Source of the DNA: Patescibacteria group bacterium
Lineage (GTDB): Bacteria; Patescibacteriota; Minisyncoccia; Phycocordibacterales; UBA918
Assembly (NCBI GenBank): GCA_019752815.1
Contig: JAIELQ010000007.1
Coordinates: forward strand, 40,922 to 104,921
Direction of reading: 5' to 3'
DNA length: 64,000 nt
Positions within the stretch are counted from its first letter, which is position 1, and each line of letters opens with the position of its first letter. This document shows, piece after piece, positions 4,726 to 40,920 of the stretch. Both the position numbers and the translations under genes were made by a program. Under the pieces are notes generated by a model, which searched no databases, had not been told where the DNA came from, and saw only the letters and a list, made by a program, of their open reading frames with translations.

Positions 4726-5451
4726 ATGAAAAATCCTTGGGTAATAATCGGAGTTTTGATGGTGGTGCTTATTGGTGGTTCAGTCTGGTACTCAAATAGT
4801 GTCTCTGCAACCTACAATGAAGGGGTCGAAGTCAAAGCACATATTAAAGGTGGTGAAAACGCCGCTGTGACGTTGGTTGAATACAGTGACTTTCAATGTC
4901 CTGCTTGTGGAGCATTTCAGCCCGTTCTGAATGAGGTGTTGGCACAATACGGAGACAAAATTAAATTTGAATACAAACACTACCCGCTCGTGCAAATTCA
5001 CCCGTTTGCCGAACCAGCCGCGCGCGCCGCAGAAGCGGCTGCCCAGCAAGGTAAATTCTTTGAATTTGCTGATATGTTGTTCGAGAAACAAGCTGAGTGG
5101 AGTAAGGGTAGTAACCCTACCGGTTTCTTTACCCGATATGCGACTGAACTCGGTCTTGATATGGAGTTATTCGCCAAGCACCAGAAATCGAGCCTATTAA
5201 GTGATAACGTGCGTGCCCATATGGCGGAAGCGCGTGGTTTAGGACTAACCGGCACACCGTCGTTTTATCTCAATGGTGTAAAAATGGAAAATTCCACCTT
5301 TGAAGACTTTAAAGCGCAAATTGAAGCAGCGGTGAATCCGCAAGTAGATTTCAATCTTCCAAGTGAAGAACTACGAATGATTCCAGTAGAAGGGGAAGCG
5401 AGTACTACCGCAGAAGCGACTGCCACTCCCGCAGTACAGTTTGGGATTTAA
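4726..5451 (+). CDS. DsbA-family thiol:disulfide oxidoreductase, membrane-anchored
   Basis: N-terminal TM segment, a CPAC active site (EYSDFQCPACGAF), and a thioredoxin-like fold with an Ala-rich C-tail. Confidence 0.8.
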   Translation: MKNPWVIIGVLMVVLIGGSVWYSNSVSATYNEGVEVKAHIKGGENAAVTLVEYSDFQCPACGAFQPVLNEVLAQYGDKIKFEYKHYPLVQIHPFAEPAARAAEAAAQQGKFFEFADMLFEKQAEWSKGSNPTGFFTRYATELGLDMELFAKHQKSSLLSDNVRAHMAEARGLGLTGTPSFYLNGVKMENSTFEDFKAQIEAAVNPQVDFNLPSEELRMIPVEGEASTTAEATATPAVQFGI

Positions 5452-5453
5452 GT

Positions 5454-6176
5454 ATGGAGCGAGCGCCTCAAGAGTTTGATACTGAAGCGTTTGATGAATA
5501 TATCTACCCACAGTTTTCACGAGCTAAGGTCTCAGTGTTGAGTGACGTGAAGCCCGATAAAAAATGTTTAACAGAAGTGAAGACAGATTTTATCGCGGGG
5601 AAAATTGAAGAACCAGTTTTGACGTACGAAAAAAATAAAGACACTTGGTACGACGAGCCAGAAATTATCCTGTTAGATTTAAAGAACGAACTTATAGTGC
5701 GTGGAGATATTCCTGAATTTATTCGAGAGCAATATATTTGGGCAATTAATGAGAAGATTGCAAAAATCCGTATGCTGCGCGAGACTCAGGCAGTTACAAA
5801 AGGCGGTGATGTGGAATATCACATGAAGCGCTTTCAACGGTATGCTGACTTTATGTACGGTCAACCAGACCCAAAAATTTTTAATGGGGTAATGCAGCGG
5901 ATTGAACATGAGATTACTGTCACCAAAAATCAAGAAAACGAATCTTCGGAAATTGCTGCAGCAAGAAAAAAACTTTTAGAAATTATTGAGAGTTACAAAG
6001 CTGATAATCCGTACCTAGATTCGCTACAAAATATTAATATTGAGGGTCCCAAAACTGACGAGGAAATTGTAACTGATGCGGAAGTCTTAAAAAAATATTC
6101 GAAGAGGCTCTCATTTCGTACGGCTTGGATGATTGGAAAGTGGTTATTGACAAAAGTGGAACGAGGACAGCCATAG
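5454..6176 (+). CDS. DUF1704 / QEGLA-motif family protein, N-terminal portion of a gene split by an apparent frameshift
   Basis: Frame 0 ends shortly after an A7 run at 6089-6095. The -1 frame continues with ...EEALISYGLDDWKVV, which is characteristic of DUF1704. Confidence 0.55.
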   Translation: MERAPQEFDTEAFDEYIYPQFSRAKVSVLSDVKPDKKCLTEVKTDFIAGKIEEPVLTYEKNKDTWYDEPEIILLDLKNELIVRGDIPEFIREQYIWAINEKIAKIRMLRETQAVTKGGDVEYHMKRFQRYADFMYGQPDPKIFNGVMQRIEHEITVTKNQENESSEIAAARKKLLEIIESYKADNPYLDSLQNINIEGPKTDEEIVTDAEVLKKYSKRLSFRTAWMIGKWLLTKVERGQP

Positions 6177-6811
6177 CCGTTTCCGGAGATGGGAAAAAAG
6201 TCTTATTGCCAACATCTGAAAAGCTAGCGCTTCGAAGTAAGAAGCGACAATTGTCAATGTCTATGATCAAAGGTCTTATTGCTCATGAAATTGGTACGCA
6301 TGGACTCCGAAAAAAGAACGGCCAACAGTCCAAAGTACTACTCTTGAGCTCAGGATTAGATAGATATGAACAAGGCGAGGAAGGTCTCGCTACATTTAGG
6401 GAACAAGCTGAAACACCGACAGCAGATTATGCTGGTTTAGAGGCATACTTTGCTATTGGAATAGCAAAAGGCATGGATGGTGGGTCAAAGCGTAATTTTG
6501 CGCAAGTATTTGAAATTTTAACAAATTATTATCTTATCTCAGAGAACACTGATACTGCTCGTGCTAAAGAATTAGCTTGGAGTCGTTGCGAGCGTATTTT
6601 TCGGGGCACAACTGGAACTGTGCCGGGAGTAGTTTTCTCAAAAGACCTCATGTATCGTGAGGGTAATATATCTCACTGGAAAGCAGTAGCTAATGGTGCG
6701 TTAGATGGCCTTGATTTAGATTCTGGAAAATTTGACCCAACTAATCCACGGCATGTTAATTTTCTCAATAATCTTAAGGAATTGAATCAGAAAGTGGATC
6801 AGCTGCAATAA
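6125..6811 (+). CDS. DUF1704 / QEGLA-motif family protein, C-terminal portion (HEIGTH metal-binding motif, EEGLA motif)
   Basis: LIAHEIGTHGLR is an HExxxH motif, and YEQGEEGLATFREQAE matches the TIGR02421-type QEGLA motif. This part continues the upstream ORF in another frame. Confidence 0.55.
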   Translation: MDDWKVVIDKSGTRTAIAVSGDGKKVLLPTSEKLALRSKKRQLSMSMIKGLIAHEIGTHGLRKKNGQQSKVLLLSSGLDRYEQGEEGLATFREQAETPTADYAGLEAYFAIGIAKGMDGGSKRNFAQVFEILTNYYLISENTDTARAKELAWSRCERIFRGTTGTVPGVVFSKDLMYREGNISHWKAVANGALDGLDLDSGKFDPTNPRHVNFLNNLKELNQKVDQLQ

Positions 6812-6867
6812 ATACACTTTGTGGAAGGTTTTTTACAAAAGTATTTGATTGTTATTCGTATAAGATT

Positions 6868-7734
6868 TTATGAGACTTCAATTATTTTAGCTATTGTAGA
6901 AAATACAAAGTCTTTACCATAAATAGATTCGAATCCGTTTATCTGAGGAGATTTATTGACTTCGAGTACAATAGGTCCGTTTTCGGTATGAATAAAATCT
7001 ACACCGCCAAAATCTATGCCGGTTGCTTTGCAGGCAGCAATGGCAATTGCGGCCTCACTTTCGGTTAGTGTGTACGGTTCAACCAGGGCGCCTTTAGCTA
7101 CGTTGTTGTGAAAGGCTCCGTTTTGGGCAATGCGTTTGATAGTGCCCAGAATTTTTCCGTTAAAGACCAAGGTGCGGGTGTCAAAGGTATTAGGGATGAC
7201 ACGTTGGATTAGACATAGTCTGTGAGTCGGTTTTTCAGAAATGAGGTCGTCAAGTTCTGTGCGGTTTTGTACCAGCACCACATTCCTGCCTTGGCTACCA
7301 TCAGTTTTAAACACACAGGGGAAAAATAGTTTCGATCGTAGGTATTCTTCATTGCTTACAAAAGAGTCTTCCTGAAAAATAACTGTTTCGGGAATTTTTA
7401 TGTTTGCACGTGCTAGAGCAGCCATTTGGGTAATTTTTTCTTCAGCATGCACAAATTTTTGGTTCACCGGATCGTTCATTTTGACTCCCAGTGAGTCCAA
7501 GTGTTCAAAAAGAATTCCGCAGAAATGTTGATCATGTGCCCGCAGTCGAGTAAATAAATAATCAATATTAAAATCGCAGACTTCGTTTTTATGGACAAAG
7601 GTAATTAATCCGGTGTCATCAATATGCAGCAGCATATTTTTTGAACGATAGAATACAAGTGAGGAAGTATCTACTCCCAGAGCAAAGGCGGCTCGAGTTT
7701 TACTACCGGCGTTTAATAAGGCAATTTTTTGCAT
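6868..7734 (-). CDS. RimK-like ATP-grasp ligase (alpha-L-glutamate ligase-related)
   Basis: ATP-grasp motifs are present (FPCVFKTDGSQGRNVVLV, GGVDFIHTENGPIVLEVNKSPQ). It is convergent with and adjacent to the DUF1704 gene. Confidence 0.75.
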   Translation of the reverse strand: MQKIALLNAGSKTRAAFALGVDTSSLVFYRSKNMLLHIDDTGLITFVHKNEVCDFNIDYLFTRLRAHDQHFCGILFEHLDSLGVKMNDPVNQKFVHAEEKITQMAALARANIKIPETVIFQEDSFVSNEEYLRSKLFFPCVFKTDGSQGRNVVLVQNRTELDDLISEKPTHRLCLIQRVIPNTFDTRTLVFNGKILGTIKRIAQNGAFHNNVAKGALVEPYTLTESEAAIAIAACKATGIDFGGVDFIHTENGPIVLEVNKSPQINGFESIYGKDFVFSTIAKIIEVS

Positions 7735-7839
7735 AGGATTAACAGTCTAGCATGCCTCAGTAAAAAAGATAGACGGGTGATTGTATCTGTGCTATAATCA
7801 TGGCATCTAACATTCTCCTTGTTGCCAGCAACAATATTT

Positions 7840-9114
7840 CCTATGTCTAAAAAAGCAGAAAAAAACATTATTGCTTTTGTGGCTAATTTGCCGCAATCGT
7901 CTGTTGAGAGTATTCATGCGTATGGGAAAAAGACCGGTCAAAAGTTCCGTATTATGTTGATTTTAGATAAGAAGCATACTGAACTCAAGAGAGAGCCACA
8001 ATGTGATATTTTGCTCAAAATTGATTTTTCTAAGTCAGAAAAAATTACAGAAGCCCTGTTACCATATGAGAACCAGTTACTTGCGATTACCTGTCGGAGT
8101 GAAGCTAATATTGCTCGGTTTGCCAAAATTATCCCCTGTGTTCCGTATTTACGAACTCCAACAAGTGAATCATTGTCGTGGGCCACTGATAAGTATGAAA
8201 TGCGGAAACGCTTTAAGCTGTATGACCCAAAGATCACTCCCAAGTTTACGCTTGTAAAAGATACCTCTGTCGCTGAATCAAAACGACTAATTGAAAAAAT
8301 TGGTTTTCCTATGATTATTAAACCGGCCAACTTGGCGGCGAGTTTGTTTGTGACTATTTGTTATCACGAAGATGAGCTTAAAACTGCTCTCGCTACCTGT
8401 TTCCGCAAAATCCGTAAAGCGTACGAAAACGATAAACGGTTAGAGGAACCAAAAGTTATTGCTGAAGAGTACATGGAAGGTGACATCTATTCCATTGATA
8501 GTTACGTAAATTCGCGTGGTACGGTCTATCACTTGCCGATGGTCCGGGTGAAAACTGGTAAAGACATTGGTCACCATGACTTTTATGGGTATACCCAGAT
8601 GACACCAACAATTCTCAAACGCGACACTATTAAGCGTGCTGAAGCAGTAGCTGAGACTGCTATTCATGCGCTCGGGTTACGCAGCTCAACTGCTCATACA
8701 GAACTGATGAAAATTGACGGAGAGTTTAAGGTCATTGAACTGGGACCTCGTATGGGCGGGGCGCGGGATAAGCTCTATAACCTCAGCTGTAACATTGACC
8801 ACCCTCTGAACGATGTTCTCATTCGTATTCCAAAAAAACCAAAAATTCCAAAAAAATGTAATGGTAATGCCGTCTACATGAAATGGTTCTTACCTAAAGA
8901 AGGCATCATCACGTCGCTCGCTGGTATCAAGAAAATTGAACAATTGGAATCATTTTACAAAATTGAAGTGAATAAAAAAATCGGTGATCGGGCTACATTT
9001 GCCCGTAGTGGAGGACGATCAGTCTTTAATTTGTATCTCTATAATGCCGATCGGGCAAAATTGTTGGCAGATATTCGGCGGGTGGAGCAATTGGTGAAGA
9101 TTAAGCTACGGTAA
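7840..9114 (+). CDS. ATP-grasp domain ligase (L-amino-acid/carboxylate-amine ligase-like) with an N-terminal accessory domain
   Basis: FPMIIKPANLAAS, EEYMEGDIYSIDSY and HTELMKIDGEFKVIELGPRMGG match ATP-grasp B/C-loop patterns. A TATAAT -10 box lies at 7791-7796. The ATG at 7840 is preferred over the TTG at 7819. Confidence 0.6.
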   Translation, partial: PMSKKAEKNIIAFVANLPQSSVESIHAYGKKTGQKFRIMLILDKKHTELKREPQCDILLKIDFSKSEKITEALLPYENQLLAITCRSEANIARFAKIIPCVPYLRTPTSESLSWATDKYEMRKRFKLYDPKITPKFTLVKDTSVAESKRLIEKIGFPMIIKPANLAASLFVTICYHEDELKTALATCFRKIRKAYENDKRLEEPKVIAEEYMEGDIYSIDSYVNSRGTVYHLPMVRVKTGKDIGHHDFYGYTQMTPTILKRDTIKRAEAVAETAIHALGLRSSTAHTELMKIDGEFKVIELGPRMGGARDKLYNLSCNIDHPLNDVLIRIPKKPKIPKKCNGNAVYMKWFLPKEGIITSLAGIKKIEQLESFYKIEVNKKIGDRATFARSGGRSVFNLYLYNADRAKLLADIRRVEQLVKIKLR

Positions 9115-9163: not shown

Positions 9164-9943
9164 ATGATACGGACCCGAAACTTTTTTCTCTTTGTGTTGC
9201 TAGTGGCGTTTTTAATTGGGGGTATTTTGTTGACGCTTTGGTTTAGTGCATCAACGGTCCAGCAGGAGCAGTATGCAGACATGATATTTGGTGGTGACAA
9301 CACCGCTACTATGACTGCCGAGGTGGTGACTCCAGAAGATACTCGACAAAGTCGTTTAGCCAGTTTGCGTGCCAAGCTTGCTAAATACACTGATGTAGCG
9401 ATGGCACCAAGTGTCGAGGAGGTGTCTGTTGAAACTACTAACAGTGAGAATGCGACGACAACAGATGAAGCTCCAGGCAAAGCAACAGCAGATGTATGTG
9501 CAAATTATGGTGCGACTGCTGTCCCAGCCCTCAATGGACAGTTAACGTACGGGGAAAGCGGGGGGCAGCGAACGTTTGGTACAGTGGGCACGACTGAACC
9601 GACTGGCTCATCAACCGTCCCGGCAACTACGGTAGCTACAGTGTTTGTATTGCCACTGCGGACCACTGCCTTGCCGTCACCGTCATGTATTGCGAGTGAC
9701 ATAGTGGCGGTTACACCAACGGGCTCACCAATCAGAAATACTGATTATGCAAAATATCGAGGCGTGGGCGAAGCAACCTTAATTGGATATACGATTGATG
9801 GTTTCGAACTATATGGAGCGAGTAGTAACCTGCAAACTGATGCCTGTGGTGGAACAACTGTTTCGGGAGTCTATCGCTACTATCTCTCAAGCGAACGAGA
9901 CACCGTTCTCAATTGTTTTGCAGCGATACCCGTAGCCTTGTAA
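9164..9943 (+). CDS. Hypothetical membrane-anchored secreted protein (Thr/Gly-rich)
   Basis: N-terminal TM helix. No recognisable catalytic motif. Confidence 0.4.
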   Translation: MIRTRNFFLFVLLVAFLIGGILLTLWFSASTVQQEQYADMIFGGDNTATMTAEVVTPEDTRQSRLASLRAKLAKYTDVAMAPSVEEVSVETTNSENATTTDEAPGKATADVCANYGATAVPALNGQLTYGESGGQRTFGTVGTTEPTGSSTVPATTVATVFVLPLRTTALPSPSCIASDIVAVTPTGSPIRNTDYAKYRGVGEATLIGYTIDGFELYGASSNLQTDACGGTTVSGVYRYYLSSERDTVLNCFAAIPVAL

Positions 9944-40294: not shown

Positions 40295-40477
40295 GAGAAT
40301 CCGAAAAACTACCTCATCTACTGCGTTGCCTGCGTCGGAAAATTTCTCACCGTATATTGAATACGGCTCGCAATTTTTCTCCTTGTCGCCTTGTATCTAA
40401 GGCAGTTTATCGAATTCTCTAATCCAATCACTCTGTTTTTGAAGTTTTCCACCTCCTTACGGATTCTAATTAAAAAA

Positions 40478-40506
40478 ACAGGCGCCCAAGTTATTGGACG
40501 CCTTTT
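40478..40506 (-). terminator. Weak terminator hairpin downstream of the small minus-strand gene
   Basis: aggcg-N14-cgcct followed by a T-run on the minus strand. Confidence 0.35.
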
Positions 40507-40509
40507 CGT

Positions 40510-40704
40510 TTATTCGCCGTCGCCGGTCGCCGGTCGACCAAAATCTTTTGTGTCAATCTGGTCTGGATTGTACGTAATGACTGCATCTGCAGTATTTGCA
40601 ACTGGAGCTGGGTTGAAGATTGGGTCATACGGCTTTGTGGCCGGCTGACGTTCATAAGCGGGCATATTGTGTTCGAGAACACGGTCTACCGGGTCACGGG
40701 CCAT
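40510..40704 (-). CDS. Small hypothetical protein (64 aa) with a strong RBS
   Basis: AGGAGG lies 7 nt upstream of the ATG (MARDPVDRVLEHNMPAYERQ...). It sits inside the 625-bp spacer between the umuD-like gene and the GH18 gene. Confidence 0.4.
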   Translation of the reverse strand: MARDPVDRVLEHNMPAYERQPATKPYDPIFNPAPVANTADAVITYNPDQIDTKDFGRPATGDGE

Positions 40705-40920
40705 GGTGTTTCCTCCTTCTGACTGTCCCACGATTGTAACTACATCAGTCAATAAAAAGTAACCGCCCGACACATGAGACGGTAGAGGGGTGGTCCCTAT
40801 AGTCAAGGATTTATTTTTTGGTGATTGGCGATATTTCCCGTATGATGAGTAGAGTAATCATGACAGAGTATCCGCAGATTATATAGGTAAGAAAAGGCCG
40901 TTTAAGTCGTCTTAAAAATT

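Follow-up and report, generated by a model that had tools for sequence, protein, structure and literature searches.

Does a bacterial relative of the tubulin-trimming carboxypeptidase MATCAP work with the amino-acid ligases encoded beside it, and if so, on what? This question is raised by a locus on contig JAIELQ010000007.1 of a Patescibacteria group bacterium, in a stretch of 64,000 nucleotides that we refer to as the window. A MATCAP/DUF1704-type peptidase gene lies here next to a RimK-like ATP-grasp gene and a second, larger ATP-grasp gene. A preliminary description of this DNA proposed that the three genes form a reversible peptide-tagging system, and we recovered all three where that description placed them (Table 1). 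Our analysis leads us to favor a modular locus for non-ribosomal peptide ligation and trimming with a small acceptor, a reading to which we assign a probability of roughly 0.42. The larger ATP-grasp gene and a membrane-anchored neighbor are the conserved part of this locus, and the peptidase is a variable accessory.

The larger ATP-grasp gene proved to be the most conserved gene of the locus and the constant partner of the RimK-like gene, rather than the unusual extra that it had been taken for. We call it LAL (L-amino-acid-ligase-type) for its likeness to the L-amino acid ligases BacD/YwfE and BL00235. This likeness consists of an ATP-grasp_4 domain, a weak match to LAL_C2 (24.3 bits, below the cutoff of 29.4), and BacD as the best match in the PDB (E = 5.6e-10). 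The match to the BacD equivalog lies far below its threshold (45.9, cutoff 850), and the score against the Ddl family PF07478 is just below the cutoff (23.5 bits, cutoff 24). LAL probably starts at the ATG at 7843, because a 100% identical NCBI protein (P0121, 'ATP-grasp domain-containing protein [Patescibacteria group bacterium]') has 423 residues. We found 1481 LAL homologs, the best 120 of which are 63-100% identical to the window protein.

We analyzed 56 metagenomic LAL loci, supplemented with look-ups. In 39 of 44 loci, the next gene downstream of LAL encodes a homolog of the membrane-anchored protein of ~260 residues that follows LAL in the window. The gene immediately upstream, usually divergent, was RimK-like in 24 of 47 loci and belonged to a FemX-like family of ~250 residues, in one or two copies, in another 17. 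LAL and its membrane-anchored neighbor are the conserved core of the locus, and two non-homologous kinds of amino-acid-adding enzyme alternate as the partner of LAL. The core looks like an unstudied, near-core gene pair of the candidate phyla radiation (CPR), in which LAL is unusually conserved for this group. No Pfam or NCBIfam model matches the ~260-residue protein. An M(I/V)RTR(D/N)F-type motif recurs just before its transmembrane helix in the eight members sampled.

The position upstream of LAL is held in the window by a RimK-like gene that is divergent from LAL and convergent with the peptidase gene. Its product matches the Pfam RimK domain over its full length, in agreement with the family first proposed for it, and its best sequence matches in the PDB are Escherichia coli RimK structures (5ZCT/4IWX, E = 5e-20). 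The residues usual for Mg/ATP binding in ATP-grasp enzymes (D ... E-x-N near the C terminus) were located by eye in the translation as 'GVDFIHTENGPIVLEVNKSPQ'. The protein scored below the cutoffs of TIGR00768 (rimK_fam; 125.2 bits, cutoff 143.4) and of the RimK equivalog PRK10446 (79.7, cutoff 331). Full-length RimK-like orthologs (at least 32% identity) in the LAL-centered loci are all divergent LAL neighbors. The exception, locus L003, comes from a second, MATCAP-centered set; there the ortholog adjoins MATCAP, without LAL. Three loci (L103, L106, and L139) carry a second LAL-type paralog of 411 residues on the minus strand beyond the RimK-like gene, so that three consecutive ligases lie in the order LAL(-) RimK(-) LAL(+). 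Apart from the RimK-like gene and LAL, we detected no ATP-grasp gene in the 64-kb window.

The ~250-residue family takes the RimK-like position beside LAL in L002 (9325-10805, minus strand), L094, L115-L124, L132, and L135. Its 92 homologs are all annotated as 'hypothetical', tandem paralogs are common, and no Pfam or NCBIfam model matches the family. An AlphaFold2 model of one member (predicted local distance difference test (pLDDT) 95.8) has a GNAT fold, and the nearest folds are FemX, Sbb17, MprF, ATE1, and L/F-transferase. Judging from this model, which shares the FemX-like GNAT fold of FemX/Sbb17-type aminoacyl-tRNA-dependent transferases, the proteins that replace RimK in sister loci are probably a new family of such transferases.

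The peptidase gene is split in the window, and we characterized its product after adding one A to an A7 run, which yields a protein of 452 residues. The repaired protein matched Pfam PF08014 (MATCAP) with 60.8 bits (cutoff 27, E = 1.5e-16), which bears out the DUF1704 identity first suggested, and PF08014 is present in every one of its listed homologs. The HExxxH and EEG motifs seen in the initial reading are retained after correction of the frame (HEIGTH, with the catalytic glutamate, and EEGLA downstream). Across 55 homologs, no substitution occurs at E279, H283, E310, or G311, and conservation of H278 and E309 is 90% or higher. A 16-sequence profile that includes the repaired protein matched crystal structures of human MATCAP (KIAA0895L; PDB 7Z5G/7Z5H/7Z6S) with E = 2.7e-5, pairing HEIGTH with HEIGTH and EEGLA with EEGLA. 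AlphaFold gave a confident model of the closest homolog, P0001 (pLDDT 93.6, predicted template modeling score (pTM) 0.91), and the fold is that of a MATCAP-like gluzincin. No signal peptide was evident at the N terminus when the sequence was read by eye.

Human TMCP1/MATCAP (KIAA0895L) and TMCP2 (KIAA0895) are also PF08014 proteins, with the same HEIGTH and EEGLA motifs. They are gluzincin-type tubulin metallocarboxypeptidases and deglutamylases with an HExxxH motif and an EEG motif, the latter providing the putative third metal ligand; they take off C-terminal tyrosine and glutamate and shorten polyglutamate chains (PMC10499314). The likeness extends to ATP-grasp partners, which are TTL/TTLL enzymes in eukaryotes and RimK/GshB-like enzymes in bacteria. 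The window protein is just ~19-20% identical to the human enzymes and differs from them by an extra N-terminal helical region of ~190 residues outside the Pfam match. Its locus has no tubulin or microtubule-binding context, and its gene is disrupted.

Membership of the window protein in the PF08014 superfamily is well supported by these sequence matches. Its membership in the proteobacterial equivalog TIGR02421 (QEGLA) is not: the repaired protein scored 62.5 bits (cutoff 338.65) and carries EEGLA instead of QEGLA, whereas a genuine member from locus L143 scored 373.6 bits. QEGLA proteins share with it the superfamily, HExxxH, the (Q/E)EGLA motif, and an adjoining RimK/GshB-superfamily ATP-grasp ligase. 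They are longer (~620 residues), and their partners are an N-formylglutamate-amidohydrolase-family protein (FGase) and a GshB-like ligase, whereas the window has LAL and a RimK-like gene and no FGase. We collected 169 homologs of the window protein, labeled as Patescibacteria, Moranbacteria, Paceibacteria, Saccharibacteria, and Magasanikbacteria and named by NCBI as 'tyrosine/phenylalanine carboxypeptidase domain-containing protein' or 'DUF1704 domain-containing protein'. The CPR MATCAP profile, searched against 1.84 billion representatives, returned 3,425 clusters (50% identity) at E <= 1e-3 and 778 at E <= 1e-30.

Linkage of this family to ligases was assessed in 80 genome loci of relatives, in which we called open reading frames (ORFs) and searched them with iterated hidden Markov models seeded on the window ligases. 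In 38 of 81 loci, at least one RimK-superfamily ATP-grasp gene lies within four genes of MATCAP, and many of these loci have two or three. Where at least 4 kb of flank was available on each side, a RimK/GshB-superfamily ATP-grasp gene occurred within 4 kb in 36 of 53 loci. The density of ATP-grasp genes per 10 kb was 2.7, 1.9, and 1.5 in the first three kb around MATCAP and 0.08-0.25 farther away (3-8 kb). Gene order and orientation vary between lineages, which argues for functional coupling over frozen synteny. The pairing also occurs in Proteobacteria, where tblastn found 91 plasmid or chromid records, and all three annotated QEGLA loci that we examined have the order FGase, QEGLA, PRK12458 GshB-like ATP-grasp. 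These results demonstrate that the linkage of the MATCAP family with RimK/GshB-superfamily ligases is statistically strong, phylogenetically broad, and general, and they agree with the recurrent neighborhood expected at the outset.

The proteobacterial operons (L143-L145, on replicons of Mesorhizobium, Roseateles, and Pararhizobium) consist of an N-formylglutamate-amidohydrolase-family gene, a QEGLA gene whose product has an extra N-terminal region of ~250 residues, and a PRK12458 'glutathione synthetase' gene (470 bits) that is probably misnamed as a true GshB. The linkage of QEGLA proteins with ATP-grasp enzymes is presumably embedded in database family descriptions already, and the rhizobial and betaproteobacterial loci here support it. 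In Photobacterium damselae, low salinity induces a QEGLA gene (RS17025) 27-fold, the 'GshB' gene with the preceding locus tag (RS17020) 38-fold, and RimK 52-fold.

A typical operon from Moranbacteria (L017:3765-12045) encodes an RloB-like seven-transmembrane protein, a fusion of an RloC-like ligase (TIGR02291, 266.8 bits) with an RloA-like retropepsin, a GshB/RimK-like ligase, a GT1 glycosyltransferase, MATCAP, and the penicillin-binding protein PBP1A. Other Moranbacteria loci have a YdjC gene in place of GT1. In 23 loci of this kind, PBP1A lies directly downstream of MATCAP. A neighboring Moranbacteria ligase of 317 residues matches the Pfam family TTL (27.1 bits, cutoff 20.1). The RloB-like protein of these loci is without a transglutaminase domain.

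We compared the slot between the DsbA-like gene and LAL (5452-7842 in the window) with that of the nearest relatives and found five different contents. The window and L081-83 have a MATCAP gene that we term type I, with a convergent RimK-like gene; LAL is not on the short L081-83 contigs. In L001/L002 (LAL 79% identical to the window's), type I MATCAP is accompanied by two Fem-like genes. L147 and L149 (LAL 95% and 94%) contain an intact type II MATCAP with the motif HELKTH, 33-34% identical to the window's, and no second ligase. In L085/86/88 (LAL 88%), a TAA codon replaces the catalytic glutamate codon of a type II MATCAP (LVAH*LKTH), and RimK is missing; this pseudogene (L085:3597-4928, L086:1253-2584, and also L088) has an identical sequence in two samples, one from JGI and one from Logan. 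L084/87 (LAL 94%) have nothing in the slot. In the genomes with 94-95% LAL identity, the flanks are preserved: the methyltransferase, DsbA-like, and LAL proteins are 82-95% identical and those of two downstream genes 72-81%.

The DsbA|LAL slot is a site of frequent gene turnover, through replacement as well as loss. MATCAP is a variable accessory, which the nearest relatives lack, replace, or retain as a pseudogene; it can accompany RimK or Fem, or adjoin LAL directly. Since slot contents differ between conserved flanks, the peptidase, alone or together with a second ligase, is frequently exchanged or lost. The pairing of MATCAP with an ATP-grasp gene therefore recurs as predicted, and the arrangement of three genes is not stable: RimK is missing beside LAL of 94-95% identity, MATCAP is absent or replaced there, and it is a pseudogene beside LAL of 88% identity. 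Joint loss of RimK and MATCAP, considered as proof that one depends on the other, is weakened by L147 and L149, where an intact type II MATCAP is kept although RimK and Fem are absent.

The peptidase gene in the window does not have an intact reading frame. Two overlapping plus-strand ORFs are the two halves of one MATCAP-like gene, which is split at an A7 run (Table 1). The repaired protein aligns without gaps across the break with intact homologs of 435-475 residues, and full-length homologs are single ORFs of ~415-475 residues. The closest of these, P0001 (loci L081/L082; 85% amino acid and 78% nucleotide identity), has A8 exactly where the window has A7, and its ORF is intact; no further indel separates the two genes across 1359 aligned nucleotides. 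Judged by this alignment, the lesion is a single-base loss in a homopolymer.

This lesion may be a real mutation or a sequencing artifact. Homopolymer error throughout the assembly can be dismissed as a general cause, as 40 of the 41 homopolymers in the window cause no clear split of long ORFs; only the run at 6089-6095 clearly splits two. Such errors are thus not widespread in the assembly, an observation that speaks neither for nor against a miscall at this site. A second A7 run (40472-40478), at which two short same-strand frames of 95 and 82 codons overlap (40361-40719), may mark another homopolymer-split gene or may be chance. Real inactivation is plausible, because the peptidase is an accessory that is often exchanged or lost in relatives. 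We also considered programmed -1 frameshifting or transcriptional slippage at A_AAA_AAA. The heptamer is in register, but neither the frameshift nor the A run is conserved among the 169 homologs, all of them single ORFs (L081 has an in-frame A8 and L083 a nearby T8), and a designed frameshift is therefore unlikely; low-level slippage may still rescue some of the product.

Table 1. Features of the peptidase and ligase locus in the window (strand relative to the window as read).
Feature	Position	Strand	Remarks
DsbA-like membrane-anchored thioredoxin-fold gene	4726..5451	+	Pfam Thioredoxin_4 99 bits, DSBA 62 bits
MATCAP/DUF1704-fold gluzincin metallocarboxypeptidase-like gene (Patescibacteria type I)	5454..6811	+	split: ORFs 5454-6176, 6125-6811
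A7 homopolymer, frameshift site	6089..6095	+	frame restored by +1 A (equivalent to -1 shift)
HEIGTH (HExxxH) zinc-binding/catalytic motif	6284..6301	+	read from sequence; residues 278-283
EEGLA motif (EEG = putative third metal ligand)	6377..6391	+	read from sequence; residues 309-313
RimK-family (alpha-L-glutamate-ligase-like) ATP-grasp ligase	6868..7734	-	Pfam RimK 116.9 bits; 288 residues
Sigma-70-like promoter (TAGACG-17-TG-TATAAT) upstream of LAL, in the divergent intergenic region	7770..7798	+	10/12, extended -10; consensus match only
L-amino-acid-ligase-type (BacD-like) ATP-grasp gene, LAL	7843..9114	+	ATP-grasp_4 68.4 bits; likely start 7843; ORF opens with TTG at 7819
Membrane-anchored protein of ~260 residues, no known domain	9164..9943	+	directly downstream of LAL

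Family and fold assignments, catalytic motifs, the frameshift, and the neighborhood statistics are direct results of the analysis; the functional coupling, chemistry, and acceptor of the locus we infer. In the model that we favor, LAL and its membrane-anchored partner would form the invariant core of a cytoplasmic ligation locus. A divergently encoded second amino-acid-adding enzyme would join them, RimK-like here and one or two FemX-like aminoacyl-tRNA-dependent transferases elsewhere. Together the ligases would build a short alpha-linked peptide or tail, probably containing glutamate, on an acceptor. The MATCAP-fold zinc carboxypeptidase would be optional and would strip one or more C-terminal residues from what the ligases make, serving to edit, turn over, or recycle it. 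Here this arm appears to have been cut by a 1-nt deletion in an A8 tract: either function has truly been lost, as in sister lineages, or the homopolymer was miscalled. Making and trimming a glutamate-containing alpha-peptide would be the simplest chemistry, because RimK-family enzymes add alpha-linked glutamate and MATCAP/TMCPs remove C-terminal glutamate and tyrosine. The pairing of ligase and peptidase put forward in the preliminary description is to this extent a reasonable one, given that MATCAP-family enzymes are C-terminal carboxypeptidases and deglutamylases (PMC10499314).

The acceptor would more likely be a small peptide or an envelope precursor than a ribosomally made protein. The usual substrates of LAL, GshB-like, FGase, and FemX/Sbb17-like enzymes are free amino acids, small peptides, or cell-wall precursors, and we lean toward such an acceptor for this reason and because LAL is tied to a membrane-anchored protein. 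None of our results shows that the acceptor is a protein. The leaning toward a small acceptor is nevertheless not decisive: RimK and MATCAP are both best known for acting on protein tails, and the fold matches of the FemX-like family include ATE1 and L/F-transferase, which tag protein N termini.

Several other observations weigh against the ligation-and-trimming model. Dependence on the peptidase is loose: MATCAP is present in 6 of the 47 LAL loci, with none seen in the other 41, and the intact type II MATCAP of L147 and L149 accompanies LAL without RimK or Fem. From the side of the peptidase, 17 of the 53 MATCAP loci have no ATP-grasp gene nearby. Synteny inherited within a single clade could account for some of the LAL adjacency. 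In this very window the peptidase gene is disrupted, and our literature search found no biochemical work on any bacterial MATCAP homolog. Finally, the characterized activities of RimK and MATCAP are on protein C termini, which favors protein tagging.

Reversible protein tagging is the explanation that comes closest to the original proposal, and we regard it as unlikely. In this scheme, the RimK-like ligase would add glutamate or another residue to a specific protein C terminus, such as that of ribosomal protein S6, and the MATCAP-like enzyme would remove it, which would make the pair a bacterial equivalent of tubulin (de)tyrosination/(de)glutamylation and of RimK/RimB. Among proteins of solved structure, E. 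coli RimK is indeed the nearest to the 288-residue ligase, the characterized MATCAP/TMCP enzymes are all deglutamylases that act on protein C-terminal tails, and RimK/RimB is a bacterial precedent for such a cycle. The enrichment of ATP-grasp genes around MATCAP and the TTL-family match of the Moranbacteria ligase point the same way. On the other hand, we found no acidic-tailed candidate substrate gene in or beside the locus, and tblastn detected no rpsF in the 64-kb window, nor did we find another obvious acidic-tailed substrate gene there. The ligase falls below both RimK cutoffs, and its constant partner is LAL. FemX-like transferases can also take its place, and these add residues to amines and not to C termini; the proteobacterial partners (GshB-like, FGase) are small-molecule enzymes. 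A broader version of this idea, that RimK/GshB/TTL-like ligases write, and bacterial MATCAP enzymes erase, C-terminal (poly)glutamylation or aminoacylation on a bacterial protein, as a prokaryotic forerunner of the tubulin tyrosination/glutamylation cycle, seems to us quite improbable; in CPR bacteria its target could be a ribosomal or cytoskeletal protein.

The swap of ATP-grasp and FemX-like enzymes at one position raises a rather doubtful alternative in which LAL and the RimK-like or Fem-like enzymes extend a peptidoglycan or envelope precursor and the MATCAP-like enzyme trims or recycles the stem or branch peptide. In Gram-positive bacteria, cross-bridge synthesis relies either on Fem transferases or on an ATP-grasp D-Asp ligase. 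The membrane-anchored, extracytoplasmic partner of LAL and the DsbA-like neighbor fit such a role, as does the Moranbacteria MATCAP in its Rlo-like operon with GT1 or YdjC, directly upstream of PBP1A; rlo mutants of Pseudomonas aeruginosa show cell-shape, osmotic, and beta-lactam phenotypes. Yet the PBP1A adjacency is perhaps only lineage synteny, no Mur or Ddl genes lie nearby, and the match of LAL to Ddl is weak. Gluzincin carboxypeptidases normally take L-residues, and the whole argument is contextual. The low-salinity induction of QEGLA, the adjacent 'GshB', and RimK, among the most induced genes in P. damselae, would fit a different role, in which the RimK-like enzyme polymerizes free glutamate and the MATCAP-like enzyme depolymerizes the chain, buffering the glutamate pool and the osmotic state. 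RimK produces free poly-alpha-L-glutamate, RimB/RloA cut it, TMCPs shorten glutamate chains, and Rlo proteases are required under hypo-osmotic stress. We consider this role very unlikely for the window: it leaves the LAL core, the Fem-like replacement, and the membrane-anchored partner unexplained, and there is no evidence of polyglutamate in CPR bacteria. Least probable of all is that there is no functional system, only a decaying accessory peptidase in a hypervariable slot, with ligases beside it by accident. The frameshift in the window, the nonsense codon at the catalytic glutamate in a sister lineage, and the close relatives described above that lack RimK and have no MATCAP or another type are all in keeping with decay, as is the scarcity of MATCAP at LAL loci. 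Against it, ATP-grasp genes are enriched 10-15 fold around MATCAP in many lineages and gene orders, and independently in Proteobacteria. Moreover, the closest type I relatives, L081-83, retain the convergent MATCAP/RimK pair intact, and the window gene has a single lesion in 1359 nucleotides.

We compared the locus with known systems that combine a ligase and a peptidase. RimK forms alpha-linked glutamate tails and free poly-alpha-glutamate (PMC11957791, PMC11957051), and a cycle in which RimK and RimB add and remove glutamate on RpsF has been described biochemically (PMC11957791). The statement that such C-terminal add/remove cycles are essentially uncharacterized in bacteria thus does not hold. 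The S6 glutamylation cycle of RimK/RimB (and RimA) in Pseudomonas and E. coli (PMC11957791) resembles the window locus in combining a RimK-family ligase with a potentially reversing peptidase. It differs in that its peptidase is a retropepsin-like aspartic endopeptidase and the window's a gluzincin, in that the window locus has no RimB or RimA, and in that the window ligase scores below the RimK equivalog and subfamily cutoffs. The RloABC operon of P. aeruginosa, which has been characterized genetically, with the retropepsin RloA, the seven-transmembrane inactive transglutaminase RloB, and the ATP-grasp protein RloC (PMC11957051), follows the same ligase-and-peptidase logic, and Moranbacteria loci such as L017 carry Rlo-like genes beside MATCAP. 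The window ligases are instead RimK-like and LAL-type, and neither RloB, RloA, nor a TIGR02291-type RloC was among the proteins scanned around the locus. A Pfam scan of nine proteins near the locus, which covered those nine only, contained no retropepsin domain. Iyer et al. (2009; cited in PMC3495828) had already predicted bacterial 'peptide-tagging' operons, in which an ATP-grasp ligase is joined by a peptidase that reverses its action, and had predicted that TTL arose in bacteria.

The concept of a ligase and peptidase that add and remove residues is therefore not new, with precedents in RimK/RimB and in the predicted peptide-tagging operons. What is new here is that CPR bacteria have a gluzincin (MATCAP-type) eraser in place of a retropepsin or transglutaminase-like enzyme, attached to a two-ligase core in which either an ATP-grasp or a Fem-type enzyme fills the second place. 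Our literature search found no paper that mentions MATCAP together with ATP-grasp. The MATCAP/DUF1704 family is widespread in bacteria and repeatedly linked to glutamate-ligase-type ATP-grasp enzymes in CPR bacteria and Proteobacteria. If these genes do form an add/remove module, the carboxypeptidase is predicted to trim alpha-linked glutamate or other residues added by the neighboring ligase, and the module would give the eukaryotic tubulin-code eraser an evolutionary root. The LAL/membrane-anchored pair and the FemX-like family may bear on envelope building in minimal CPR cells. The value of this particular window is tempered by a peptidase gene that is broken here and dispensable in close relatives.

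The stop codon of the DsbA-like gene lies 2 nt upstream of the ATG of the MATCAP-like gene, and because so little separates them, the two genes are probably co-transcribed. A DsbA-like gene directly precedes the MATCAP-like gene in L002, L085/86, L147, L149, and L081-83 as well. No tRNA gene and no Rfam family at its gathering threshold was found in the whole 64-kb window, the GC content of which is ~43%. Among the genes scanned in the first ~11 kb is one for a glycoside hydrolase of family GH3 (35-1747), and syntenic relatives have GH1 and GH42-like genes downstream of the locus.

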